From an uncultured Erysipelotrichaceae bacterium (GTDB lineage: Bacteria > Bacillota_I > Bacilli_A > RF39 > UBA660): a stretch of 51,577 bases of DNA. The stretch lies in the NCBI GenBank assembly GCA_902795755.1, contig CADBMO010000058.1, positions 1-51,577 of the forward strand. Reading direction: 5' to 3'. The notes under the pieces are model-generated. The model did no database searches. It was not told the DNA's origin and saw only the letters and a program-made list of their open reading frames with translations. The position numbers and the translations under genes were made by a program. Shown here piece after piece: positions 219-41,462 of this stretch (position 1 is its first letter; the number at the start of each line of letters is the position of its first letter).

Positions 219-1391
219 TTATTCATTATTATCTTCACCAACACTGGTCGAAGTTGTAGTTTCTTCAACGTTATACGAAGTAGTTTCATTATCATTTGAC
301 TCTGGAACAATTTTCTTTGGAATAACATATAAATCTATAGTTCTTACGTTACCGGTATTATACTCTTTTAATTTAAACCCTGTAGTGCTTTCTATAAAAG
401 ATATCCATTGGTCATTTACATCTTTTAACGCATCACTATTTTCATCAACGTAAAGTTCAAAACCATCATACCCTTCTAAATTATCAACAGCACTTTTATA
501 TTTATCATCTATTTTAACAAAATTTACATCAATTAAACTAGAATTCCCATTATTAGATACACAAAGATAACCATTTCTATAAACACACCTATGTTCATAA
601 CCTTGAAATTCCAATTCGTTGTTATCATCATATATAAATTGGTTATTATCATCAACTTTAGGGACCCATACGATTAAAGTATAATCTTTAGGCCTAGCAA
701 CACCTTTAGAAGACTCATTACGCCTTGTACTATCCTTACACATTTCGGTAATATGTAAAGTTTTAGTCTCTTTTGTTAAAGTATTTGTTATATGGGCACA
801 ATAAAAAAGATTTATACCATTGTCTTGAGCAGGTGCTGATATTTTATTAATTAACAAATCCCCACCATCCCATATGTCGCTAACATTTCTACTTATAAGA
901 TTATTAGATGAATCGTTAAAATAACCAATTTCATATTCTTTGTTATCATCATATAATGTTTGATATTTATCACAAGCTTTTTTAGTACCTATAGTAAACG
1001 AAATTTTAATATGATATTTTTTGTTTTCGTTTTCGTATTTTTTGCATCTGCCTGTATTTTCATCTCGTGTTTTGCAAAAGTTTTTAGGCCAATAAACCGT
1101 CCCAGTACTAGTTTGAATGGTAATTTTTTTATCACAATCAACGTTGTACCAGGTATCATCATCATATTGACATATATCATAATCCTGTGATTGCCCATAT
1201 TTTATTTGATCTTTAATTAATGTTTCATAAACTACAAAAGTATTACCGTTTACTATGTCATCATTGGAGGCGCCAACTATATCAACAGCTGAATCAAAAG
1301 ATGCTAGCACTACCATAGTAAATAAGGCAAATACTAATAAAAGAGAGTATAATACTGCACTAACTGCAAAACCTTTGTTATTTATTTTCAT
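219..1391 (-). CDS. Cys-rich secreted/surface protein with a pilin-like N-terminus
   Basis: 390-aa ORF. N-terminus MKINNKG|FAVSAVLYSLLLVFALFTMVVLA resembles a class III (prepilin) signal but lacks Glu5. Mature part is rich in Cys/Tyr/Asn/Asp. No family recognised. Confidence 0.6.
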   Translation of the reverse strand: MKINNKGFAVSAVLYSLLLVFALFTMVVLASFDSAVDIVGASNDDIVNGNTFVVYETLIKDQIKYGQSQDYDICQYDDDTWYNVDCDKKITIQTSTGTVYWPKNFCKTRDENTGRCKKYENENKKYHIKISFTIGTKKACDKYQTLYDDNKEYEIGYFNDSSNNLISRNVSDIWDGGDLLINKISAPAQDNGINLFYCAHITNTLTKETKTLHITEMCKDSTRRNESSKGVARPKDYTLIVWVPKVDDNNQFIYDDNNELEFQGYEHRCVYRNGYLCVSNNGNSSLIDVNFVKIDDKYKSAVDNLEGYDGFELYVDENSDALKDVNDQWISFIESTTGFKLKEYNTGNVRTIDLYVIPKKIVPESNDNETTSYNVEETTTSTSVGEDNNE

Positions 1392-14101: not shown

Positions 14102-14135
14102 TTAAAAAAAGAAAAAACTAGAAAATCTAGTTTTT
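14102..14135 (-). terminator. rho-independent terminator after polC
   Basis: Minus strand AAAAACTAGA-TTT-TCTAGTTTTTTCTTTTTTT, overlapping the polC stop codon. Confidence 0.7.
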
Positions 14136-17100
14136 AAAATAGACTAAGTTGACTTGATTCCGGCATATCATCAAAGATGTTCATAGCTTTCATTCTATCA
14201 ATTAATGTTTGTGATATTTTACTTCTAATTTGTACATCTTCAATACTTAAAAACTCTGCTTTTTTTCTTTCAGATACAATGTTTTTAGCAACCGTATCAC
14301 CTAACCCATCAATTGAAGAAAATGGCGGATAAATAGAAGTTTCATCTTTTACACCCCAAATGGTTGCTTCACTATTATATAATTCAACTGGTAAAAATTT
14401 AATACCTCTAGCGGTTGCCTCAAGAGCAACTTTTAAACTTTCTAATTGACCCATTTCTTTGTTTGATGCCTCATATCCTTTATTTTGTATTTCAATAATT
14501 TTTTCTTTTATAGCATCATATCCTTTTATCATTACATCAACATCTACGTCAGTTGCTTTTGATGTAAACCATGAAGCATAAAAGTATACGGGCATATGAA
14601 CTTTATACCATGCAATTCTAAAAGCTGAAATAACATACGCTGCAGCATGTGCTTTAGGAAACATATATTTAATCTTACCACAAGAATCAATATACCAATC
14701 TGGTATACCTGCTTCTTCCATTGTCTTAACGTGCTCTTTCCAACCTTCTGGATCTTTAGAAGCCCTTCCCTTACGAACAAATTCCATTATTTTAAATGCC
14801 TTGATTGGTTTTACGCCATGATACATAAGGTAAACCATAATATCATCACGGCACCCAATTACTTCTTTAAATGGAACAATGTTTTTTTGTATTAATTCTT
14901 GAGCGTTACCTAGCCATACATCCGTACCATGAGAAAGACCCGAAATCTTTATTAGTTCGGCAAAAGTAGTTGGTTTGGTTTCACTTACCATTGAAATTGT
15001 AAATGGCGTACCAAACTCAGGGATACCTAACGTACCTGTTTTATTCATAATTTGTTCCGTAGTAACTCCAAGTGCCTTAGTAGATGTAAATATACTCATG
15101 GTATCTTTATCATCTAATGGTACTTTTGTAATATCCGTTTTAGTTAAATCTTGTATCATTCTAAGTTGAGTTGGATCAGAATGACCTAATATATCTAATT
15201 TTAACAAACATTCTTCTATTGAGTGATAATCAAAGTGAGTAGTTCTCCATGCACTATTAGGATCATCTGCTGGAAATTGAAATGGTGTAAAATCAGATAC
15301 ATCTTTATAATCTGGTACAACAACAATACCACCTGGATGTTGCCCCGTTGTTCTTTTAACACCTGTTACACCTTTTGCAAGTCTTTCTATTTCGGCAGAA
15401 CGTCTCATCATTCCATTATCCTCAAAATACCCTTTTACAAAGCCATATGCTGTTTTATCTGCAACGGTACCAATGGTACCAGCTCTATATACATTATCTT
15501 TACCAAATAACACCTTAGTATATGCATGTGCAGATGCTTGGTTTAAATCACTAAAGTTAAGATCTATATCTGGTACTTTATCTGCGTTAAATCCCAAAAA
15601 TGTTGCAAATGGCATATCTTGACCATCTTTAAATAAATCATTCCCGCAATTAGGACATTTCTTATCTGGTAAATCTATACCAGTTGAATACTCAGAACCT
15701 AATGGTCTTCCGTCTTCAAAATTAAAGATACTATGTGAACATTTAGTACATCTATAATGTGCTGGAAGTGGGTTAACCTCAGTAATTCCCATCATTGTTG
15801 CAACGAAAGATGAACCAACAGAACCACGAGACCCAACTAAATAACCATCATCATTAGAGTGCTTAACTAATCTTTGTGCAATAAGATATATAGGATCAAA
15901 TCCTCCACCTATGATTCCACCTAACTCTTTTTTAACCTTGGAATCTATCTCTGTTTCCTCAATTTTTTCTACGTCCATAAAATACTTTTTAAGTAATTTT
16001 TTTACCGAATCATAACCATTTACTAATACGTTATGTAACTTTTCAAATGTTTTTACCTTAATATCTTCATCACTATCTTTATTATTTTCTTCTTTTATAT
16101 AGTATTCACATACTTTATATACAATATTACCATATAATTCGGTTGCAATACGTTCTTCTATATTATATGGAAGTGGATTACCATACCATTGGGCTGCTTT
16201 TTCATATACTAAATTAGTTACAACAACTGGACAGTCTAAATATGATTTGCCATCATCAGATTTTATTCTTGGAGAAAAAGGTATACCATGAGTATCTGGA
16301 ATAACTTCAATTTCTTCAACCATATCAAGCATTTTATTAGTATTTTCAACCACTATTTCATATGCTAAATCATTACCTAAAAACGAAAAATCGTTTAACA
16401 TCTCAGATGTTGTTCTAAAATGTTGTGATGGTATTTCTTTTATATCTTTTTTTGCTAAAGGGTGCCTACCACCACCAGGTACTTTTTGATTCACTATTAT
16501 TTCTCTGTATATTTTATCTTCTCTTTTAAAATGATGTACATCACCAGTTGCAACAATCATCTTTCCACAATCTTTGGTTGCTGCAATTATTTTTTTAATA
16601 TGTTCTAATACTTCACTTTCATTTTTAAAGTCACTAGTTTGAATTAAATGACCATAAACTTCAGGTGGTTGAACTTCAACATAATCGTAAAAATTAATTA
16701 TGTTGTTTAATTCTTCGCCTTCTTTACTTTTTGCAAGTACAAATACTTCTGATTCATAACAACCACTACCTATTAATAAACCCTCTCTTAAGTCATTTAA
16801 AACACTTCTAAGTATTCTAGGAGTCTTGTATAAATAAGTTGTATTAGCAAGTGATATTATTTTAAATAGGTTCTTTAAACCAGTTTTATTCATAGCAATA
16901 GCATTAAAATGATATGTTCTACCAAATTTATGTATTTCATCTTTCGAAACCAATTTATCTAAATCAGATACTTTTTCATAATTTTGTGAATCTAGTTTAA
17001 CAAGCATTTTATGAAATACCTTTGCAGTTCCTTCGGCATCATAATCTGCCCTATGGTGGGCATCTTCGTCCCACTCAACATTATATCTTTTAACAAGAGC

Positions 17101-18714
17101 AGATAAACTATGCCTTGCATAACCTTGATCAAGCGTTCTAGATAATTCTAAAGTATCGATTACGGTATTAGTAAACTCGCCTAAGTTATATTTTTTCATT
17201 GCCATTTCAATAAATGACATATCAAACTTGGCATTATGTGCAACCACAGGTAAATCCCCTACCCAGTCTAAAAACTCTTTCGTAACAGTTTTTTCATCAT
17301 CACAGCCAGATACCATTGCATCAGTTATTTGGGTTAGCTCTGTAATTTTATCAGGTATATGCCTTTTAGGATCAATTAATTTATCAAATCTATCCAATAT
17401 TTCACCATTACATATTTTAACAGCACCAATTTCAATCATTTGATCATCACCAGCAGCATTAAAACCTGTAGTTTCAGTATCAAATACTACAAACGTTGAT
17501 TCTAGTAATGGTAAATCACTAGGACGAATTACAATATTTACAGTATCATCAACAAGTGTTAATTCAACACCATATAATCCTTTAAAATGTTTATTAGGAT
17601 CTTCTATACCCTTGTTATGAGATTTTATAATACCATATGCAATAGGAAAAGCTTGACAACCATTATGATCAGTTATAGCAACTCCGCGATATCCCATGTT
17701 AATTGCGTTAGAAACCAATTCACAAGTATGTTTTCCCAAATCCACCTTTGTTATACCATCCATTTGACTCATCATGGTATGAGCGTGCAATTCTACTCTT
17801 TTAACTTCAGCATCATCTGTAATAACAACATCCTTTGAAGGAATCTTAACAACGTTTCTAATATTAAGAACAAGGTCCTTAGCAAACTGATCTTGTTTTA
17901 CATAACCAGATATTCTAAACCACCCTTTACTCATAGCCTTACTAACTCTTTTAAACTCATCTTTATCGCGAGTAAAAAACTTAGCATATATACTATCTGT
18001 ATTATCACTAATTTTAAAAGTTAATATTTTAAATGCACTTTTACTTGATTCAAATTCATCAGTGCCAAAAACGTAAGCTTCTACAACAATATTATCCTCT
18101 TCAGTAATAATGTCTTTAATTCTCGTAATATTACCTTTTGGTTCATCACCCAAAATTATAGGCGATTCTTCTTTTTTTACATCAGTTTTAGCAATAGCCT
18201 TTTCTTTTTCTAACTCTTTTCTAACGTCAAGAGTGTTTTCTAAATTGATTTTTGTATTTATTTTAATATCACTATAACCTAGTTTTTTATAAAAAGAGAT
18301 AATACTTTCTTTAGCCTTATTAAAGATATTTTCTTCTGCAACATTATCAACTTCTACTTGTAATGTATTATCTATTACTTCTATTTTTTTGTTTTTAAAT
18401 AATAGTTTCATTGGTTTAGTTAAACTACTATTATCAATAGCAACTACGTAAGAATCAATACAAGTATTATAATCAACATCTTCAATAATATAATCAGCAC
18501 GAACTGATGATAAGTTGGGAAAACCATTATTAATAATTTTTTCTATATAATTTATAATTTCAAATGAAAGTGGTTTATCAATAGATATTACAAAAACTGC
18601 ATTTTTTCTAGATGCATCAAGTTTTAATTTGATAATTTTACCATTTGCAAATGAATCATAGTATCCTTCAGGTAATTTGATTTTATCTAAAAAAAGTTTT
18701 AATTTATCATCCAT
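14134..18714 (-). CDS. polC: DNA polymerase III PolC-type (Gram-positive replicative polymerase with built-in 3'-5' exonuclease)
   Basis: 1526 aa. DEDD exonuclease motif FVVFDTETTG, Cys4 zinc module (CTKCSH...CPNCG), GSRGSVGSSFVA and PDIDLNF polymerase motifs. Confidence 0.97.
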   Translation of the reverse strand: MDDKLKLFLDKIKLPEGYYDSFANGKIIKLKLDASRKNAVFVISIDKPLSFEIINYIEKIINNGFPNLSSVRADYIIEDVDYNTCIDSYVVAIDNSSLTKPMKLLFKNKKIEVIDNTLQVEVDNVAEENIFNKAKESIISFYKKLGYSDIKINTKINLENTLDVRKELEKEKAIAKTDVKKEESPIILGDEPKGNITRIKDIITEEDNIVVEAYVFGTDEFESSKSAFKILTFKISDNTDSIYAKFFTRDKDEFKRVSKAMSKGWFRISGYVKQDQFAKDLVLNIRNVVKIPSKDVVITDDAEVKRVELHAHTMMSQMDGITKVDLGKHTCELVSNAINMGYRGVAITDHNGCQAFPIAYGIIKSHNKGIEDPNKHFKGLYGVELTLVDDTVNIVIRPSDLPLLESTFVVFDTETTGFNAAGDDQMIEIGAVKICNGEILDRFDKLIDPKRHIPDKITELTQITDAMVSGCDDEKTVTKEFLDWVGDLPVVAHNAKFDMSFIEMAMKKYNLGEFTNTVIDTLELSRTLDQGYARHSLSALVKRYNVEWDEDAHHRADYDAEGTAKVFHKMLVKLDSQNYEKVSDLDKLVSKDEIHKFGRTYHFNAIAMNKTGLKNLFKIISLANTTYLYKTPRILRSVLNDLREGLLIGSGCYESEVFVLAKSKEGEELNNIINFYDYVEVQPPEVYGHLIQTSDFKNESEVLEHIKKIIAATKDCGKMIVATGDVHHFKREDKIYREIIVNQKVPGGGRHPLAKKDIKEIPSQHFRTTSEMLNDFSFLGNDLAYEIVVENTNKMLDMVEEIEVIPDTHGIPFSPRIKSDDGKSYLDCPVVVTNLVYEKAAQWYGNPLPYNIEERIATELYGNIVYKVCEYYIKEENNKDSDEDIKVKTFEKLHNVLVNGYDSVKKLLKKYFMDVEKIEETEIDSKVKKELGGIIGGGFDPIYLIAQRLVKHSNDDGYLVGSRGSVGSSFVATMMGITEVNPLPAHYRCTKCSHSIFNFEDGRPLGSEYSTGIDLPDKKCPNCGNDLFKDGQDMPFATFLGFNADKVPDIDLNFSDLNQASAHAYTKVLFGKDNVYRAGTIGTVADKTAYGFVKGYFEDNGMMRRSAEIERLAKGVTGVKRTTGQHPGGIVVVPDYKDVSDFTPFQFPADDPNSAWRTTHFDYHSIEECLLKLDILGHSDPTQLRMIQDLTKTDITKVPLDDKDTMSIFTSTKALGVTTEQIMNKTGTLGIPEFGTPFTISMVSETKPTTFAELIKISGLSHGTDVWLGNAQELIQKNIVPFKEVIGCRDDIMVYLMYHGVKPIKAFKIMEFVRKGRASKDPEGWKEHVKTMEEAGIPDWYIDSCGKIKYMFPKAHAAAYVISAFRIAWYKVHMPVYFYASWFTSKATDVDVDVMIKGYDAIKEKIIEIQNKGYEASNKEMGQLESLKVALEATARGIKFLPVELYNSEATIWGVKDETSIYPPFSSIDGLGDTVAKNIVSERKKAEFLSIEDVQIRSKISQTLIDRMKAMNIFDDMPESSQLSLF

Positions 18715-18796
18715 AATACCACCCTACTTCGTAATATTTATTATAACATTTATACCTATTAATTAAAATATAAAATACCAATTTTTTTAAAATAAT

Positions 18797-18832
18797 TAAA
18801 AACGAATAGTTGTTATTAACTATCCGTTTTTA
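18797..18832 (-). terminator. rho-independent terminator after the giant pilin gene
   Basis: Minus strand ACGGATAGTT-AATAAC-AACTATTCGT followed by TTTTAATTATTTT. Confidence 0.65.
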
Positions 18833-18848
18833 ATATATATATCATTTT

Positions 18849-21482
18849 TTATTTATCTGGAACTAAATAACATTTTGTTTCAGAACCACTACAACTGTTA
18901 GGAGCTCCTTTTTTTACACTGTAAAGCTTTCTACAATATCCGGTTTTACCACTTCCCTTATTTGCAACATTATAATTAGTACTAGTACAATTACCAGCCC
19001 TATCACAAGCATGTAAGTATAAAGTGGCAGAATCATTCTCTAAGAAATTAAAATCAAATCTAATTTTAAAATACTTATCTTGAGTTGTTCTTTTATATAA
19101 AGCAGCGTTTGCTCTAGCGAATTTAAGCATATTATCATTGCTAGCATCAGTTGAAGATACGCACCAAGAACCAGAACAAGATTTTCCACTGTGTTTAGAA
19201 TATTTATAATTATATGATGCATCTGCTATACCAGAAGATTTGCTTTCTTTACTTCCATCTTGTAAATATACATATCCCCTATGGTCAACTATATTAGACG
19301 ATAATTTTTCAAATGTTCTACAACTCGAACCATAACTACCACCATATGTAAAACTAGGTGATGTTTTATCTATATTAACTACTCCAGAATTACAAGTCTT
19401 TTTCAAAGTAGTAGCAGTTGCAGCAATTGTATAACTACACTTTTGCTTTATACCTTCACTCGTAATTGTACACAAAGTGGTTTTCCCATGTTTTACTTTT
19501 ACATTAGATCTATACCAATTTGTATCACTATTTTTAGTTCCTTCATAAGTTAAATTGCTATAACAACTTCCTTTACTTTTTTTCACTTCTCCAGAAGGAA
19601 TTGGTGTTGGATCAGGATCACTTTTTGCTATTCTAAATTGTTGTGTATAACAATATCTTGAATTTCCTGCCGCATCATATACTATTGCGTAACCTCTTTT
19701 GTGATATTTACCATAAGTTTTATTATTTTTTACATATGTATCATATGGTGATTCATTATCATATGCTCTAAAGAATTTAGTATCAGCGCCAAAATTATTT
19801 GAATAAGGATAATAATTTCCTGAATTACCATAATTAAGGTATGCATACCATTCCCAAGATTTAGTATCTGCTGATGGCGTATACGTAACAGCTATTTTAG
19901 TTCCTTCGGTACCATAACTACCATAACATACAAATAAGCTTCTTCCTAAATTTGCAGTATCAACCCAGTCTGTTTTTTGACTACAAGAACCCGCGGTTCT
20001 AGGTGAATTTGCATAAGTTCCCTTATAATATTCATATGAATAAGTCCCGCAATTTGGTGCAATTGTATCTTTTGTATAAGTTGGTGATGCACAAAATTGT
20101 TTTAAACCATATTTATTAATTACATACCCCTTATATTGGTGAGTTGCATTGGCAGTAAGCTTATGTAGAACACCACTTTTAAAATCATTTGTAGACCAAA
20201 GGGATTCGTTACCATATAAATTAACAGAATATACATCATCTGGTTTTTCTGTTTCCATTGATACTAAAATATCACTTACGTACGTTGAATCATCGTCTCC
20301 CAATTCTCCATCAGCCATAAACGTAGGGCAATCAGAAGGGGCTGAAACAATAAAATTAGTATTTGAATTTGAAGCTTCATTTCCGGCATAATCTTTTGCA
20401 GAAATATCAACTGCAAAATATTCATCTTCATCGAATTTACCAAATAAAGCCGTTGCATCCTTTAAAGGAGTATCAAATGAATGAAAATCTTCATTCATAT
20501 TAATATTATTAATCCCAGATGTATCATCTTTTGCATTTACAGAAGCATAAATGCCTTTATTAAAATCATATACAGGAAACCCTTGATATGTACTATCAAA
20601 AGAAAGCTTTTTACCACTAGAATCAACAATACCATTATATGTAACCGTAGGAGCTACGGTATCTTTCATTACGGTTACATTTTTACTCCAATATCCTCCA
20701 TCTTCATCCTCAAGGTACATATTTAGATCCTTATAAACACCATCATCATAAGTTTTACAATACACATTAGTACCATCTGAACCTATTTTAATTTGACTAT
20801 TTTCTTCCTTAGCATTTTTAATAGTTATTAGATCTTGAAAACTAATATTTCCTATTTTTATTGATTTATCATATACCTTAACTTTATTAGAAGGTTTTAA
20901 ACAAACATATAATTTATTATTAGAAACTCCAGAAAAAGAGTCTATATTAAACCACCCATTGCTATTTGGTTTAATAATACTTATATTGGAACTGCCCAAA
21001 TTAACATCATCAGAAAGATCCTTATCACTCTTTAAATATAAAACTTTAGCTTGTGGACCATTTATAGTTCTTATTTCTATAGAATCTAGACTTGCTTGAT
21101 AATCACAGCTTCCTTCTATATCGCCATCTTTAAAATCATAATATGTATACTTAGTGGACCCATTTTTAATAATTATTACTACTTTGCTACAATAACTAAC
21201 TTCTTTACCTGTTTTAGGATTTTTAACTACGTTTAAATAGCCTTCTTTAACAAGTTTTCCAACGGTAACGTAGGCTTCAACATTATCCATATTTTCGAAT
21301 AAATATTGATTTGCATTATAATATGATTTGGCAGAAGTCTCAATGGTTGATTTAACATTCTCCCATTCTTCATCTTTCCTTTTATCTGCTATTCCAATTA
21401 GACTTGTAACTGCAACAACACTTATACCTGCTATTAATGCAATTACTACCAATAATTCAACAAGTGTAAATCCTTTTTTCAT
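18849..21482 (-). CDS. giant modular type IV pilin/pseudopilin-like protein (877 aa)
   Basis: Start at the ATG at 21482 (GGAGG RBS). Canonical class III signal MKKG|FTLVELLVVIALIAGISVV with Glu5. Large Cys/Tyr/Gly-rich ectodomain containing three modules of the form 'D-(K/T)-x-x-P ... D-x-AGN'. Confidence 0.8.
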   Translation of the reverse strand: MKKGFTLVELLVVIALIAGISVVAVTSLIGIADKRKDEEWENVKSTIETSAKSYYNANQYLFENMDNVEAYVTVGKLVKEGYLNVVKNPKTGKEVSYCSKVVIIIKNGSTKYTYYDFKDGDIEGSCDYQASLDSIEIRTINGPQAKVLYLKSDKDLSDDVNLGSSNISIIKPNSNGWFNIDSFSGVSNNKLYVCLKPSNKVKVYDKSIKIGNISFQDLITIKNAKEENSQIKIGSDGTNVYCKTYDDGVYKDLNMYLEDEDGGYWSKNVTVMKDTVAPTVTYNGIVDSSGKKLSFDSTYQGFPVYDFNKGIYASVNAKDDTSGINNINMNEDFHSFDTPLKDATALFGKFDEDEYFAVDISAKDYAGNEASNSNTNFIVSAPSDCPTFMADGELGDDDSTYVSDILVSMETEKPDDVYSVNLYGNESLWSTNDFKSGVLHKLTANATHQYKGYVINKYGLKQFCASPTYTKDTIAPNCGTYSYEYYKGTYANSPRTAGSCSQKTDWVDTANLGRSLFVCYGSYGTEGTKIAVTYTPSADTKSWEWYAYLNYGNSGNYYPYSNNFGADTKFFRAYDNESPYDTYVKNNKTYGKYHKRGYAIVYDAAGNSRYCYTQQFRIAKSDPDPTPIPSGEVKKSKGSCYSNLTYEGTKNSDTNWYRSNVKVKHGKTTLCTITSEGIKQKCSYTIAATATTLKKTCNSGVVNIDKTSPSFTYGGSYGSSCRTFEKLSSNIVDHRGYVYLQDGSKESKSSGIADASYNYKYSKHSGKSCSGSWCVSSTDASNDNMLKFARANAALYKRTTQDKYFKIRFDFNFLENDSATLYLHACDRAGNCTSTNYNVANKGSGKTGYCRKLYSVKKGAPNSCSGSETKCYLVPDK

Positions 21483-21549
21483 ATGTCCTCCTATTATATA
21501 TATTATTTTATCATAAATAATAAAAAATAACAATCAGGTATTTTGATTG

Positions 21550-22383
21550 TTATTCTTTTAAAAGATTATCTAATAAAACAATATTATAATTTCTAGATTT
21601 AATAACATTAATAATATAACTATACTTTTTTATGTCAAACTGATCAGTTTCGTATTCTATTATTAAACCATTAGATAAATTACTTTTTAAATCATTAATA
21701 GACGGGTTAACAAGTGATGGTGAAATACTATACATTTTGTTTTTTTTGCAAATAGTTAAATCATCTATTATTTTGTTTTCATTTAAACAATACTTTGATT
21801 TATTATCAGATATTGTTTCTATTAATTCATTTGTTTTATTTATAGTTTTTTTATCATATTTACCATCATAACCCAGATTATATATTGGATATTTAATGTT
21901 CATATAATTATCAATATTTTTAATCAAAGTTATTCCATCAACAAAAAAGCTAACATTAACATTATTAATTATTGATAAGTTATAAATTGATTGCATATGT
22001 TTCACATTATTAACTTTAAATATGATTGCAACATTCTTTTTACTTATATTACCTTTTTCTATAAAATACGAATAATTATTATTTATAGTTATTTCAGGTT
22101 TTTTCTTTTCGTAAACAATTTGTTCTTTATTAAATTTATTACTTTTCTTCATTTTCTCATATGATGCATTTACATTAATAATAGAACCACTTGATCCAAC
22201 AAAAATCGTATCATTTTTAACCAATCCATTTGATGGTAATATATCATTATTCCTTTTATACTCTTTTATTTTTTTATATAATGGATCTTTTTCTTTAGCT
22301 AGCGTAAAAACTTTATTAGTATAAATAAAGCTTAATATTAATAATATAATTATTCCAAATAGTTTAAATGTTTTATTATACAT
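21550..22383 (-). CDS. membrane-anchored protein, divergent polysaccharide-deacetylase-like (tentative)
   Basis: N-terminal signal anchor. VAIIFKVNN...NVNVSFFVDG resembles the NodB TFDDG...TFF blocks, but the catalytic Asp pair is absent. Confidence 0.4.
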   Translation of the reverse strand: MYNKTFKLFGIIILLILSFIYTNKVFTLAKEKDPLYKKIKEYKRNNDILPSNGLVKNDTIFVGSSGSIINVNASYEKMKKSNKFNKEQIVYEKKKPEITINNNYSYFIEKGNISKKNVAIIFKVNNVKHMQSIYNLSIINNVNVSFFVDGITLIKNIDNYMNIKYPIYNLGYDGKYDKKTINKTNELIETISDNKSKYCLNENKIIDDLTICKKNKMYSISPSLVNPSINDLKSNLSNGLIIEYETDQFDIKKYSYIINVIKSRNYNIVLLDNLLKE

Positions 22384-39318: not shown

Positions 39319-39459
39319 CTATCTACATTTAAATGGTCTAAAATAACCATCTAACACACCAATAAGAAACGTTATACCAGCAGCTATTCCAGCAGCTATC
39401 CAACCACCAGATGCTCCAGCTTTTACAATTTTTTGTTCATTTTTGTTTAGTTCTTTCAT
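39319..39459 (-). CDS. double-glycine-type (Ala-Gly) leader peptide 1, GxxxG-rich hydrophobic bacteriocin-like precursor (46 aa), not in the ORF track
   Basis: The ATG at 39459 overlaps the ABC-transporter TGA (ATGA), with GGAGG upstream. MKELNKNEQKIVKAG|ASGGWIAAGIAAGITFLIGVLDGYFRPFKCR. Leader has L-12, E-8, V-4, A-2, G-1. Confidence 0.7.
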   Translation of the reverse strand: MKELNKNEQKIVKAGASGGWIAAGIAAGITFLIGVLDGYFRPFKCR

Positions 39460-41462
39460 TTTACCTCCATTTCTTTTAGTATTCCTTTTTCTATTTTTAA
39501 TACTTTATCAAACAACTCCTTATTAGTACAATTATGAGAAATTAATATAAGTCCTAAATGTTTATAATTCTTTTTTATATTAATAAGTATTTGTTTTTCA
39601 GTTTCTTTATCAAGTTGACTAGTTGTTTCATCTAATATTAGTATATTACTACAATTACATAATGCTTGAGCGATAAGTATTTTTTGAATATCACCACCAG
39701 ATAAATTATCATTTATACTATCAATCTTATAATCATAACCAATATTATTATTTTTAAGCATTTTATCTATTAATGTTGTTTTAGCGGCTAATTCATAATT
39801 ATTACTATCAAGACAAATATTATTTTTAATAGTATCTGAAAACAATTTAGATTTTTGGTCCACATAAGTTATATTGTTCTTTATATCTTTATATAATACA
39901 CTATTTATATTATTATCATTAAAATATATATTTGCTTTTTTAGTTGAGATTTGTTTTGTAAGTATTTTAAATAATGTGGATTTACCAGATCCTGTTGGTC
40001 CAGTAACCATTATCCAATCTGAGTTTTTTATATTTAAATTTAATTTTTTTAAGATTAACTTATTATTATACTTAAAACTATAATTTTTTATTTTAATTCT
40101 ATATATTTTAAAGTTTGTTTCATCAAATCGGATGCTTTCATATTTAAAAAGTTCATTTATTCTTTTAATACTTGCATCATAATCTGGTTTTGTGCCATAT
40201 AAACTATATATCTCATTTAAAGAACCCATAAACATATTTGATAAAAATACTATAAAAACTAAATTATTTATGTTAATTTTCATAATTAAAGAACATATTA
40301 TTATACTAATATCAAATATAATATTTAAAATTCCAATAATCATTTCTCTTTTTAAATAATGTTTATATAAAGAATTATATATATTATGTAGCTTATTATA
40401 CTTTTCATTAATTTTAGATATAAAAAAACGTTCTTTAACATAGTTTTTTATTAATAATATATTGTTTAAGCAAGAAATAATTGTATCACTTAGTCCTTCA
40501 TTTTTTAACTGCAAATCATAATTTATATAACTATATTTCTTATAATAAGATTTATTTATAATAAAAGTTAAAATTGAAAATACAGCTAATAGAATTATTA
40601 AAAACGGTTCAAAAACCAAAAAAACTATAATTATACAAATGATTAATATAATATTTACAAAAAATATTTCAGTAATCTTACTAACCATTTCTTTTACATA
40701 AGATAAATCATTTATTTTTGATATTAACTCTCCAGATGGATGTGCTTGATAAAATTTACTGGGAAGTAATAAAGTTTTGGCAAATACGGGTACACTTAAC
40801 TTCTTATCTACTAATAATCTAAAGGATAATGTTAATTTGTTTCTTAAATAAAAAATCAATTCTTTTAGGATTCCAATGAATAAAAAAATAAGTAGTATAT
40901 AGTAAATAAAGGAGTAATTTAATTTTAAACTTAATGAATTAATTATGAATGAAATATTATATGAATATAAAATTGATAAGAATGACCATAGTAATGTTAC
41001 CATTGTTATCTTAATCATTTTTTTATTATTATAAGCATTTTTAATGTCAAACTCTTCATTTCTTTTAAACGTTATTCCCACTCCGGTAAATTCTTTTAAA
41101 AAATTGTCTTTTGGTACGTTTTTTATTCCAAATGAAGGATCTGCAATAAGTATGCTATCATTTGATACTTTGTATACCACAACAAAATGTTGAAGATTGT
41201 TTTCATTAACTGTATGTGCGATAAATGGTGTTTTAACTTCATTAATATTTATGCCTTTATAAGCTTGAGCGTCTAAAAGATGTTTTTTACTTTCTTTTAT
41301 AATTTCATATGCGCTAACACCTTCCATATCACATTTCATTTCCTTTTTTATTAATTCATAACTAGCATTTATATTGTGGTACTTAAATATCATAGAAAGA
41401 CATGCTATCCCGCAATCATTAGTATTAAGTTGTTTTGTGAACTTATATTGCAAATCTATCAC
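39456..41462 (-). CDS. bacteriocin-type ABC exporter with N-terminal C39 peptidase domain
   Basis: C39 catalytic Cys context QLNTNDCGIACLSMIF, six-TM domain, Walker A GPTGSGKST, signature LSGGDIQK, Walker B ILILDETTS. The likely true start is the TTG at 41453 (GGAGG, 8-nt spacer); the GTG at 41462 overlaps the RBS. Confidence 0.9.
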   Translation of the reverse strand: MIDLQYKFTKQLNTNDCGIACLSMIFKYHNINASYELIKKEMKCDMEGVSAYEIIKESKKHLLDAQAYKGININEVKTPFIAHTVNENNLQHFVVVYKVSNDSILIADPSFGIKNVPKDNFLKEFTGVGITFKRNEEFDIKNAYNNKKMIKITMVTLLWSFLSILYSYNISFIINSLSLKLNYSFIYYILLIFLFIGILKELIFYLRNKLTLSFRLLVDKKLSVPVFAKTLLLPSKFYQAHPSGELISKINDLSYVKEMVSKITEIFFVNIILIICIIIVFLVFEPFLIILLAVFSILTFIINKSYYKKYSYINYDLQLKNEGLSDTIISCLNNILLIKNYVKERFFISKINEKYNKLHNIYNSLYKHYLKREMIIGILNIIFDISIIICSLIMKININNLVFIVFLSNMFMGSLNEIYSLYGTKPDYDASIKRINELFKYESIRFDETNFKIYRIKIKNYSFKYNNKLILKKLNLNIKNSDWIMVTGPTGSGKSTLFKILTKQISTKKANIYFNDNNINSVLYKDIKNNITYVDQKSKLFSDTIKNNICLDSNNYELAAKTTLIDKMLKNNNIGYDYKIDSINDNLSGGDIQKILIAQALCNCSNILILDETTSQLDKETEKQILINIKKNYKHLGLILISHNCTNKELFDKVLKIEKGILKEMEVK

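Follow-up and report, generated by a model that had tools for sequence, protein, structure and literature searches.

What does an 877-amino-acid protein do that starts like a type IV prepilin and is encoded next to polC, away from the genes of a pilus machine? The gene lies on contig CADBMO010000058.1 (assembly GCA_902795755.1) of an uncultured Erysipelotrichaceae bacterium; this contig of 51,577 nucleotides was analyzed over its whole length and is called the window here. It is one (C58) of the 131 contigs of a metagenome-assembled genome (MAG) of 1.15 Mb, which is 67% complete and has about 25% G+C. The genome encodes PolC, EzrA and sporulation genes (SpoIIIAH, Germane), which fits the small-genome, low-G+C Bacilli. 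An earlier note on the window had described the gene as that of an orphan modular type IV pilin. Every sequence-level property of a pilin that could be tested was found, and we consider it likely that the protein is a modular type IV pilin, processed by PilD, that acts as a minor and probably tip subunit displaying an adhesive stalk. Its processing, its incorporation into a filament and its function in adhesion are predicted from the sequence.

The N-terminus, MKKG followed by FTLVELLVVIALIAGISVVAV (MKKG/FTLVE, with the slash at the predicted cleavage site), is a class III signal with a basic leader ending in Gly, Phe at position +1, Glu at +5 and a hydrophobic stretch. It is recognized above the cut-offs by Pfam N_methyl PF07963 (21.8 bits, cut-off 21.2) and by NCBIfam TIGR02532 (25.6 bits, cut-off 16.3), which agrees with the description as a putative prepilin-peptidase substrate with Glu5. 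Residues G4, F5, T6, L7 and E9 (precursor numbering) are unchanged across 30-32 aligned homologues. In the AlphaFold2 (AF2) model the pilin head consists of a helix of 51 residues (7-57) and strands at 68-73, 100-106 and 109-115, with a predicted local distance difference test (pLDDT) value of 80-95, and the same helix and strands were obtained when the pilin module was folded by itself (pLDDT 81.7). In a phmmer search against the PDB, alpha1 matched geopilin (3e-6), PilE1 of Streptococcus sanguinis (0.012) and PilA of Myxococcus (0.013); sequence likeness to solved pilins is limited to this helix. A generic GFTLVE pattern returned unrelated pilins from many phyla among the matches listed from the contig database. 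The protein does not have the features of a Tad/Flp pilin, since it carries GFTLVE instead of the Flp motif and is 877 aa long instead of about 50-80 aa.

Behind the pilin module, which takes up roughly 120 residues and precedes about 750 more, the earlier note had seen an ectodomain of three modules with many cysteines. The three D(K/T)xxP...DxAGN pairs it had pointed out are present (DTVAP274...DYAGN364, DTIAP472...DAAGN603 and DKTSP705...DRAGN827) and 22 Cys were counted in the 877-aa protein, but according to the AF2 model the ectodomain contains at least five beta domains and a poorly modelled C-terminal third instead of three modules. A D-x-x-x-P start and a D-x-A-G-N end are typical of bacterial Ig-like domains. 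The model of the whole protein, based on a 30-sequence alignment (mean pLDDT 61, predicted template modelling score 0.45), places beta domains at residues 135-270, 275-380 (pLDDT 85-92), 385-470 and 475-620. In alignment A1, W177 and C242 of the first beta domain are invariant, as are D603, G606 and N607 of the second Ig-like module. The combination of structure prediction and Foldseek that had been proposed as a check yielded adhesin stalks made of tandem Ig-like domains when the whole model was compared with the PDB (SiiE, 2yn5; MpIBP, 4p99 and 5irb; GhpA, 9fls; E 7e-7 to 4e-6); the TM-scores of these matches are low (0.15-0.20 over the query). The first Ig-like module gave sub-threshold matches to an OmpL47-type family (E 1.1e-4, 22.6 bits, cut-off 40) and to DUF7743 (E 0.014, 15.5 bits, cut-off 27). 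None of the bacterial Ig-like families (Big_x, DUF5011, OmpL47-type) was found above its cut-off, and the resemblance is at the level of the fold only. Module matches to Carb_bind (0.035), Agarase_CBM (0.14) and SPASM (0.085) were dismissed as noise. A homologue search with residues 620-877 alone added one protein (P0191), suggesting that the C-terminal module, the candidate ligand-binding end, is nearly unique.

The history of the gene supports a division into a conserved pilin module and a variable remainder, the cargo. A contig in the European Nucleotide Archive (L086) has the gene order 277-aa gene, 817-aa pilin (P0003), 876-aa pilin, polC and methyltransferase, and the 876-aa protein is a full-length syntenic ortholog with 51% identity. 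Its flanking genes are 73% (277-aa gene), 82-93% (PolC) and 90% (methyltransferase) identical to those of the window. Broken down by domain, the pilin module is 81%, the cargo domains are 36-58% and the C-terminal module is 58% identical. All 22 Cys (22/22) are kept in the ortholog; this speaks for an extracellular protein with structural disulfides, of which 11 pairs are predicted. On the same contig (6459-11041) polC is present as two overlapping open reading frames (ORFs) of 482 and 1060 aa, due to a frameshift or an assembly error.

A comparable difference is seen among the large paralogues, whose alpha1 helices are 71-100% identical within a genome and 35-69% between genomes, while cargo identity within a genome is 20-35%. 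Exceptions to the between-genome range are close species pairs (93% for the syntenic ortholog, 89% for the pair G017-G014). At the DNA level the paralogue in the genome studied here is only about 72% identical to the gene over the first 450 nt. Two explanations would fit this contrast between alpha1 and cargo: a recent duplication or gene conversion in which the cargo was replaced, or a packing constraint common to the paralogues. The alpha1 of the large pilins was not seen to vary together with the small pilins of its genome; the latter fall into three conserved orthologous groups. Modules recur in new combinations: P0054 (659 aa) has different Ig modules in the middle and the same C-terminal module (42% identical) with the tail GYCRKLY...CY(L/I)VPD, and P0052 and P0191 share the Cys-rich piece 640-700 behind different upstream modules. 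C-terminal modules are thus shuffled between members of the family. The class III signal of P0054 has Ala at position -1 instead of the usual Gly (KINNKA/FTLVELL).

The 877-aa protein belongs to a multigene family. Used as a query against 24 genomes of the same genus, it found three to eight pilin-like matches in each of them (24/24), and all 24 contain at least one oversized pilin-like ORF of about 400-850 aa, several of these in tandem arrays. The likeness of the oversized ORFs to the query lies mostly within the first 120-200 residues. A set with one protein for each cluster at 50% identity, searched by phmmer, yielded 1362 proteins with E <= 1e-3, 214 with E <= 1e-10 and 13 with E <= 1e-30; 128 of the 150 best matches are at least 450 aa long, and most align only to residues 2 to about 130. 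Members reach about 1000 aa. The family thus appears to consist of one conserved carrier, the pilin module, with very many cargos.

Its genes were found at several housekeeping loci. Between a helicase-like gene and alaS there are one, two and three copies in G008, G024 and G016, respectively. The interval between an ftsQ-like gene and ftsA-ftsZ in the division and cell-wall cluster of G017 (L022, G017:C92, 4641-13897) harbors an array of four intact large pilins, one broken by a TGA codon (116 + 581 aa) and one unrelated 427-aa gene. A third site, the interval between the 277-aa gene and polC, is occupied both in the window and on a metagenome contig. Among the small pilins (112-215 aa), one orthologous group has the classical A-x-P-N (Pro22) motif; their genes are likewise dispersed one by one over each genome. 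Since scattering is the norm for the pilins of this genus, the isolation of the modular pilin gene from pilus genes carries little meaning. The earlier note had asked whether homologues in relatives are isolated as well; this is the norm in the genus, but family members of 554 aa (G005) and 463 aa (G020) are encoded between pilD and pilB, and the best same-genus homologue (809 aa, G014) lies directly upstream of pilC. The presence of members inside the pil cluster or beside pilC strengthens the reading as a modular pilin.

Several further pilin-like proteins were seen in these searches. A second large pilin of the same genome is split by a contig gap (C116:17415-17824 and C102:6878-7570) and corresponds to P0007 (613 aa). 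It shares 69% identity with the 877-aa protein in the first 140 residues and has a thrombospondin type-1 repeat (PF19030, 28.7 bits, cut-off 23.8), a domain uncommon in bacteria. A genome of another family of the same class (G030, about 0.9 Mb) has 17 pilin-like matches including ORFs of 567 and 880 aa, so the expansion of proteins with class III signal peptides extends beyond the genus. The window itself encodes a Cys-rich, pilin-like protein of 390 aa that lacks Glu5 (219-1391, minus strand; N-terminus MKINNKG/FAVSAVLYSLLLVF). Single-copy homologues of 164-213 aa are present in 5/5 relatives checked, in four of the five on the contig with the pil cluster and in three about 10 kb from it. We speculate that this protein may be a PilA/GspK-like capping minor pilin, here extended by extra modules.

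The earlier note had named the absence of a prepilin peptidase and of filament machinery as the finding that would speak against a pilin; both types of components were found. PilD is encoded at C3:2-751 in an ORF clipped only by the contig start, with a profile match at C3:278-625 (55.3 bits, cut-off 26.5) and the motifs CxxC...CxxC and GGGDIKL. Adjoining it on the opposite strand is a gene for a 437-aa PilB/GspE-type ATPase (C3:775-2088; T2SSE, 432.9 bits), which scores 487 bits to GspE and 482 bits to PilB, both under the equivalog cut-offs, and the next two genes encode small pilin-like proteins. Pilins of this cluster are at C3:2208-3323 and C3:3308-3670, and further small pilins at C24:8881-9318 and C57:3200-4012. 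A fragment of a PilC/GspF-type protein (T2SSF, 45.8 bits) is located at the end of contig C88. Thus the gene is an orphan within the window, where the tadB/C-like genes are the only ones of the type IV filament kind, but not genome-wide, since PilD, PilB and PilC are encoded on other contigs.

The complete pilC-pilD-pilB cluster is present in 5/5 near-complete genomes of the same genus that were examined, with pilB on the opposite strand and with two minor pilins. The pilC product in these clusters has about 600 aa with an N-terminal extension of about 200 aa (L020 4164-5897, L024 4663-6489, L087 8911-10746); in G024 the extension, located before the GspF-like part, is of low complexity and rich in Asn and Ser. 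A separate Tad system is also present in these five genomes, which leaves one non-Tad type IV filament machine per genome. PilD was found in 24/24 genomes of the genus. All genomes carrying the family have PilD (27/27) and those without PilD do not have the family (7/7); the genomes are kin and not independent, and this co-occurrence is a matter of consistency and not a statistical test.

From these data the following mechanism can be proposed for the modular pilin. PilD would cut after Gly4 and then methylate Phe1, and the PilB/PilC machine would place the pilin module into the filament. The most likely position is the tip or a sparse minor-subunit site, because the cargo is bulky. The disulfide-stabilized Ig-like stalk would project the C-terminal module outward, where it could serve in adhesion to a ligand of host, dietary or microbial origin. 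The gene family combines a conserved carrier module with swappable, fast-diverging cargo.

Several results weigh against this reading or limit it. The C-terminal third (residues 621-877) is mostly unmodelled by AF2 (pLDDT <50), and Pfam and NCBIfam gave no significant domain assignment for any module, although the modules were scanned singly up to E 10. No solved pilin in the PDB was matched by Foldseek when the pilin module was used by itself (best E 0.64); the lollipop shape of the helix is probably ill-suited to 3Di matching, and this result is not counted as evidence against a pilin. Between species, alpha1 appears to have diverged more in the large pilins (35-69%) than in the small ones; stronger constraint might be expected for a subunit packed into the core. 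In the genomes of relatives neither a PilT-type second ATPase nor any match reaching the PilM cut-off by itself was found, and no PilM/N/O-type alignment proteins were detected; a machine without PilT and PilM appears to be minimal.

Some of these results are shared by the explanation that survives best besides the modular pilin, namely a pilin-anchored surface protein that is cleaved by PilD and never polymerized, with alpha1 as a membrane tether (or a short pseudopilus stub) and the module as an export and anchor tag. The archaeal sugar-binding proteins of the Sulfolobus bindosome, which have class III signal peptides, would be a comparable case, and the bindosome ATPase BasE is among the weak NCBIfam matches of the ATPase described above (E 6.8e-10, far below the cut-off). 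Such an anchor would suit the bulk of the cargo, the lower conservation of the large-pilin alpha1, the missing alignment proteins and the numerous scattered pilin genes, with 1-8 pilin-like matches found in each genome of about 1.1 Mb. A bare anchor would not need Glu5, Phe1 and the whole pilin head with Cys98 and Cys126, which are kept in every member, and the family members between pilD and pilB in two relatives as well as the sole studied precedent, in which modular pilins sit in the filament (PMC8179133), point in the other direction. Sortases are also on hand for ordinary wall anchoring: there are three to four sortase genes per genome, and a pilin anchor as a substitute for sortase display in a reduced genome was rejected for this reason. 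We regard an anchor that is never polymerized as unlikely.

The large pilins might also be subunits of a competence (Com)- or secretion-type pseudopilus, with PilBCD forming a DNA-uptake pilus and the large pilins binding DNA or other cargo. ComEC was found in 5/5 genomes checked, so that the single PilBCD machine, the only non-Tad one in each genome, may also serve DNA uptake, and large minor pilins of the ComZ type bind DNA (cited in PMC8179133). The N-terminus matches ComGC (20.6 bits, cut-off 75), ComGE (20.5, cut-off 49) and ComGD (15.1, cut-off 70), all far enough from the pseudopilin cut-offs to be called weak, and these matches span little past the N-terminal helix. ComGA and ComGB scores are below cut-off too and lower than those for GspE/PilB and GspF/PilC, and the gene order is not comG-like. 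Hundreds of unrelated cargo architectures are not what would be expected of a DNA receptor, and Ig-like, Cys-rich stalks look like adhesins; we find this reading quite improbable. Equally remote, or slightly more so, are large pilins as the bulk subunits of a "bottle-brush" fiber decorated lengthwise with Ig-like stalks: the 71-100% identity of alpha1 within a genome is expected of co-packing subunits, some genomes have more large than small members, in arrays, and Raynaud et al. allow a shaft location if the linker is flexible (PMC8179133), but cargos of 750 residues would be sterically crowded at the axial rise of about 1 nm known from general type IV pilus geometry, the three conserved small pilins per genome, one with A-x-P-N (Pro22), suit the role of major pilin better, and recent duplication would also explain the similarity of alpha1.

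For a minor modular pilin the closest known counterparts are PilB and PilC of S. sanguinis, modular minor pilins that are modelled at the pilus tip as PilA-PilB-PilC (PMC8179133, PMC9934059). Like the protein described here they combine a class III signal with Glu5 and a short pilin module with grafted non-pilin modules in a monoderm host, and in PilC an Ig-like fold is followed by a lectin; adhesion presented by a filament is predicted in both cases. In contrast to these two proteins, the 877-aa protein has 22 Cys and a cargo about double the length of theirs, in which at least five beta domains and a Cys-rich end are found but no lectin or vWA domain can be recognized. Its gene stands alone as a predicted transcription unit outside the pil cluster, the family has multiple copies with tandem arrays and module shuffling, the machine is without PilT and PilM, and no sequence similarity was found past alpha1.

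Raynaud et al. (2021) surveyed proteins combining IPR012902 with extra domains and found more than 1,200 proteins with 264 architectures, the largest being an 860-aa protein from Candidatus Falkowbacteria (PMC8179133). The expectation that the 877-aa protein would be a much larger modular pilin than those known holds in comparison to S. sanguinis PilB and PilC but not in comparison to this precedent, nor to the longest members of its own family. Design principle and size range are common to the surveyed proteins and the 877-aa protein. Because InterPro and Pfam have no signature for the modules found here, the family would have escaped the survey; its authors predicted hidden members of this sort (PMC8179133). 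CofB of enterotoxigenic Escherichia coli, a minor pilin of the type IVb class that acts at the tip and contains beta-repeat and beta-sandwich domains (PMC8179133), is similar in that its pilin module precedes extra domains that are all-beta and lack database signatures. It differs in being the assembly-initiating trimer of a diderm type IVb system, and the likeness is by description only. The predicted string of beta-sandwiches superposes locally on the giant adhesins SiiE (BIg, 2yn5), MpIBP (RII, 4p99 and 5irb) and GhpA (9fls). Those adhesins use the type I secretion system or other pathways and contain dozens of near-identical Ca-binding repeats, whereas the domains here are few, dissimilar, Cys-stabilized and anchored by a pilin head. 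In the full-text literature "modular pilin" is represented by one line of work, and none of the papers listed reports an expansion of such families in gut Bacilli.

The modular pilin gene itself would be transcribed as its own unit. The frame of 877 codons is uninterrupted by stops and its product begins MKKGFTLVELLVVIALIAG. An alternative frame with a TTG start would give 894 aa and extend up to 21533; because it enters the upstream hairpin and homologues begin at the MKKG position, the 877-aa product is the right one. Terminator hairpins reported on both sides of the gene were recovered, each with a U-run and a negative z score (Table 1). The 277-aa gene ends in a stop codon that overlaps the upstream hairpin, its predicted terminator, which would isolate the pilin transcript; the downstream hairpin is the predicted terminator of the pilin gene, before polC. 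A G+C-demanding terminator scan recovered the downstream hairpin and missed the upstream one. Promoter-like matches are equally frequent in shuffled sequence, making the candidate sigma-70-type promoter weak evidence. As for the flanking genes, polC was confirmed, but the deacetylase-like label of the 277-aa neighbour, a membrane protein, goes back to a sub-threshold YlxY/polysaccharide-deacetylase match only (E 1.3e-12, 47.6 bits, cut-off 391.5).

The idea that the gene is carried by a prophage or island was rejected, as its G+C content matches that of its surroundings and a relative shows synteny at this locus, including the housekeeping flanks. For this locus a shufflon, phase-variation or cassette mechanism was rejected too: long inverted repeats, simple-sequence tracts and silent copies are absent around the gene, and the paralogue in the genome has the low DNA identity given above. 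The protein is intact in two other assemblies, and with four of 877 residues differing among three independent assemblies, a small sample, within-species hypervariability was also discarded. Elsewhere in the genome, the Tad-type system seems to be split, with the TadB/C-like genes in the window and a CpaF-like ATPase, a MinD/ParA-like and a TadE-like protein on contig C37. The window also contains an ABC transporter with a C39 peptidase of the bacteriocin-exporter type (39456-41462, minus strand), which explains a weak T2SSE match within the window.

Table 1. Features of the modular pilin gene, its product and neighbouring genes; positions are those of the window.
Feature	Position	Strand	Evidence or remark
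Complete 877-aa modular prepilin gene	18849..21482	-	ORF list and translation; stop codon 18849-18851
Ribosome-binding site AGGAGG	21487-21492	-	Read from sequence; 4-nt spacer to ATG at 21482
Candidate sigma-70-type promoter, TTGTTA / 17-nt spacer / TG-extended TAAAAT	21505..21533	-	Consensus scan, 9/12 matches + TG
Upstream hairpin and U-run	21516..21558 (hairpin ~21522-21558)	-	-13.7 kcal/mol, z -6.1; 0/200 shuffles as stable
Downstream hairpin and U-run	18790..18834 (hairpin 18795-18834)	-	17-bp stem, -16.8 kcal/mol, z -6.8
Leader peptide MKKG, aa 1-4	21471..21482	-	Predicted PilD cleavage after Gly4; Phe1 and Glu5 in mature protein
Pilin module, aa 5-125	21108..21470	-	alpha1 helix and small beta head (AF2); Cys98 near-invariant, Cys126 invariant
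Beta domain A, aa 130-272	20667..21095	-	AF2 strands, pLDDT ~75-85 except poorly modelled insert 201-232
Ig-like module 1, aa 273-382, DTVAP...DYAGN	20337..20666	-	AF2 beta-sandwich, pLDDT 85-92
Beta domain B, aa 383-470, between Cys385 and Cys464	20073..20336	-	AF2 strands, pLDDT ~52-86; C464 near-invariant
Ig-like module 2 with insertions, aa 471-622, DTIAP...DAAGN	19617..20072	-	AF2 strands 480-620, pLDDT 45-85
Pro-rich linker (PDPTPIP) and Cys-rich piece, aa 623-703	19374..19616	-	Low AF2 confidence; piece recurs in other family members
C-terminal module, aa 704-877, DKTSP...DRAGN	18852..19373	-	Conserved tail GYCRKLY...CYLVPDK; low AF2 confidence except strands 806-839
polC	14134-18714		Intact, 1526 aa
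tadB/C-like T2SSF genes	50233-51575		Sole type IV filament-type genes reported in the window

Taken together, the design of the modular pilin has been known since 2021, and the results extend a known mechanism and reveal no new one. What they add is that family members are linked to the machinery in relatives, that carrier and cargo contrast in rate and that modules are shuffled. A more far-reaching idea is that the single PilBCD filament is a general display scaffold for polymorphic, cargo-swapping giant pilins, possibly decorating the shaft, as a pilus counterpart of polymorphic adhesin and toxin systems; the carrier would stay near-identical among the paralogues of one genome, and Ig-like and Cys-rich cargo would pass between genes and between species. 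We offer this idea tentatively and consider it rather doubtful. Modular pilins were put forward in 2021 as a general means of functionalizing type IV filaments, and the two that have been studied are from the same streptococcus. The uncultured gut-type Bacilli described here, with genomes of about 1.1 Mb, devote several 2-kb genes per genome to much larger modular pilins, the modules of which are not recognized by current domain databases. If these are true adhesins, they would be handles on the attachment of bacteria with reduced genomes to the mucus of a host, to particles of food or to partner cells, and also handles for the antibody-based enrichment of uncultured lineages.

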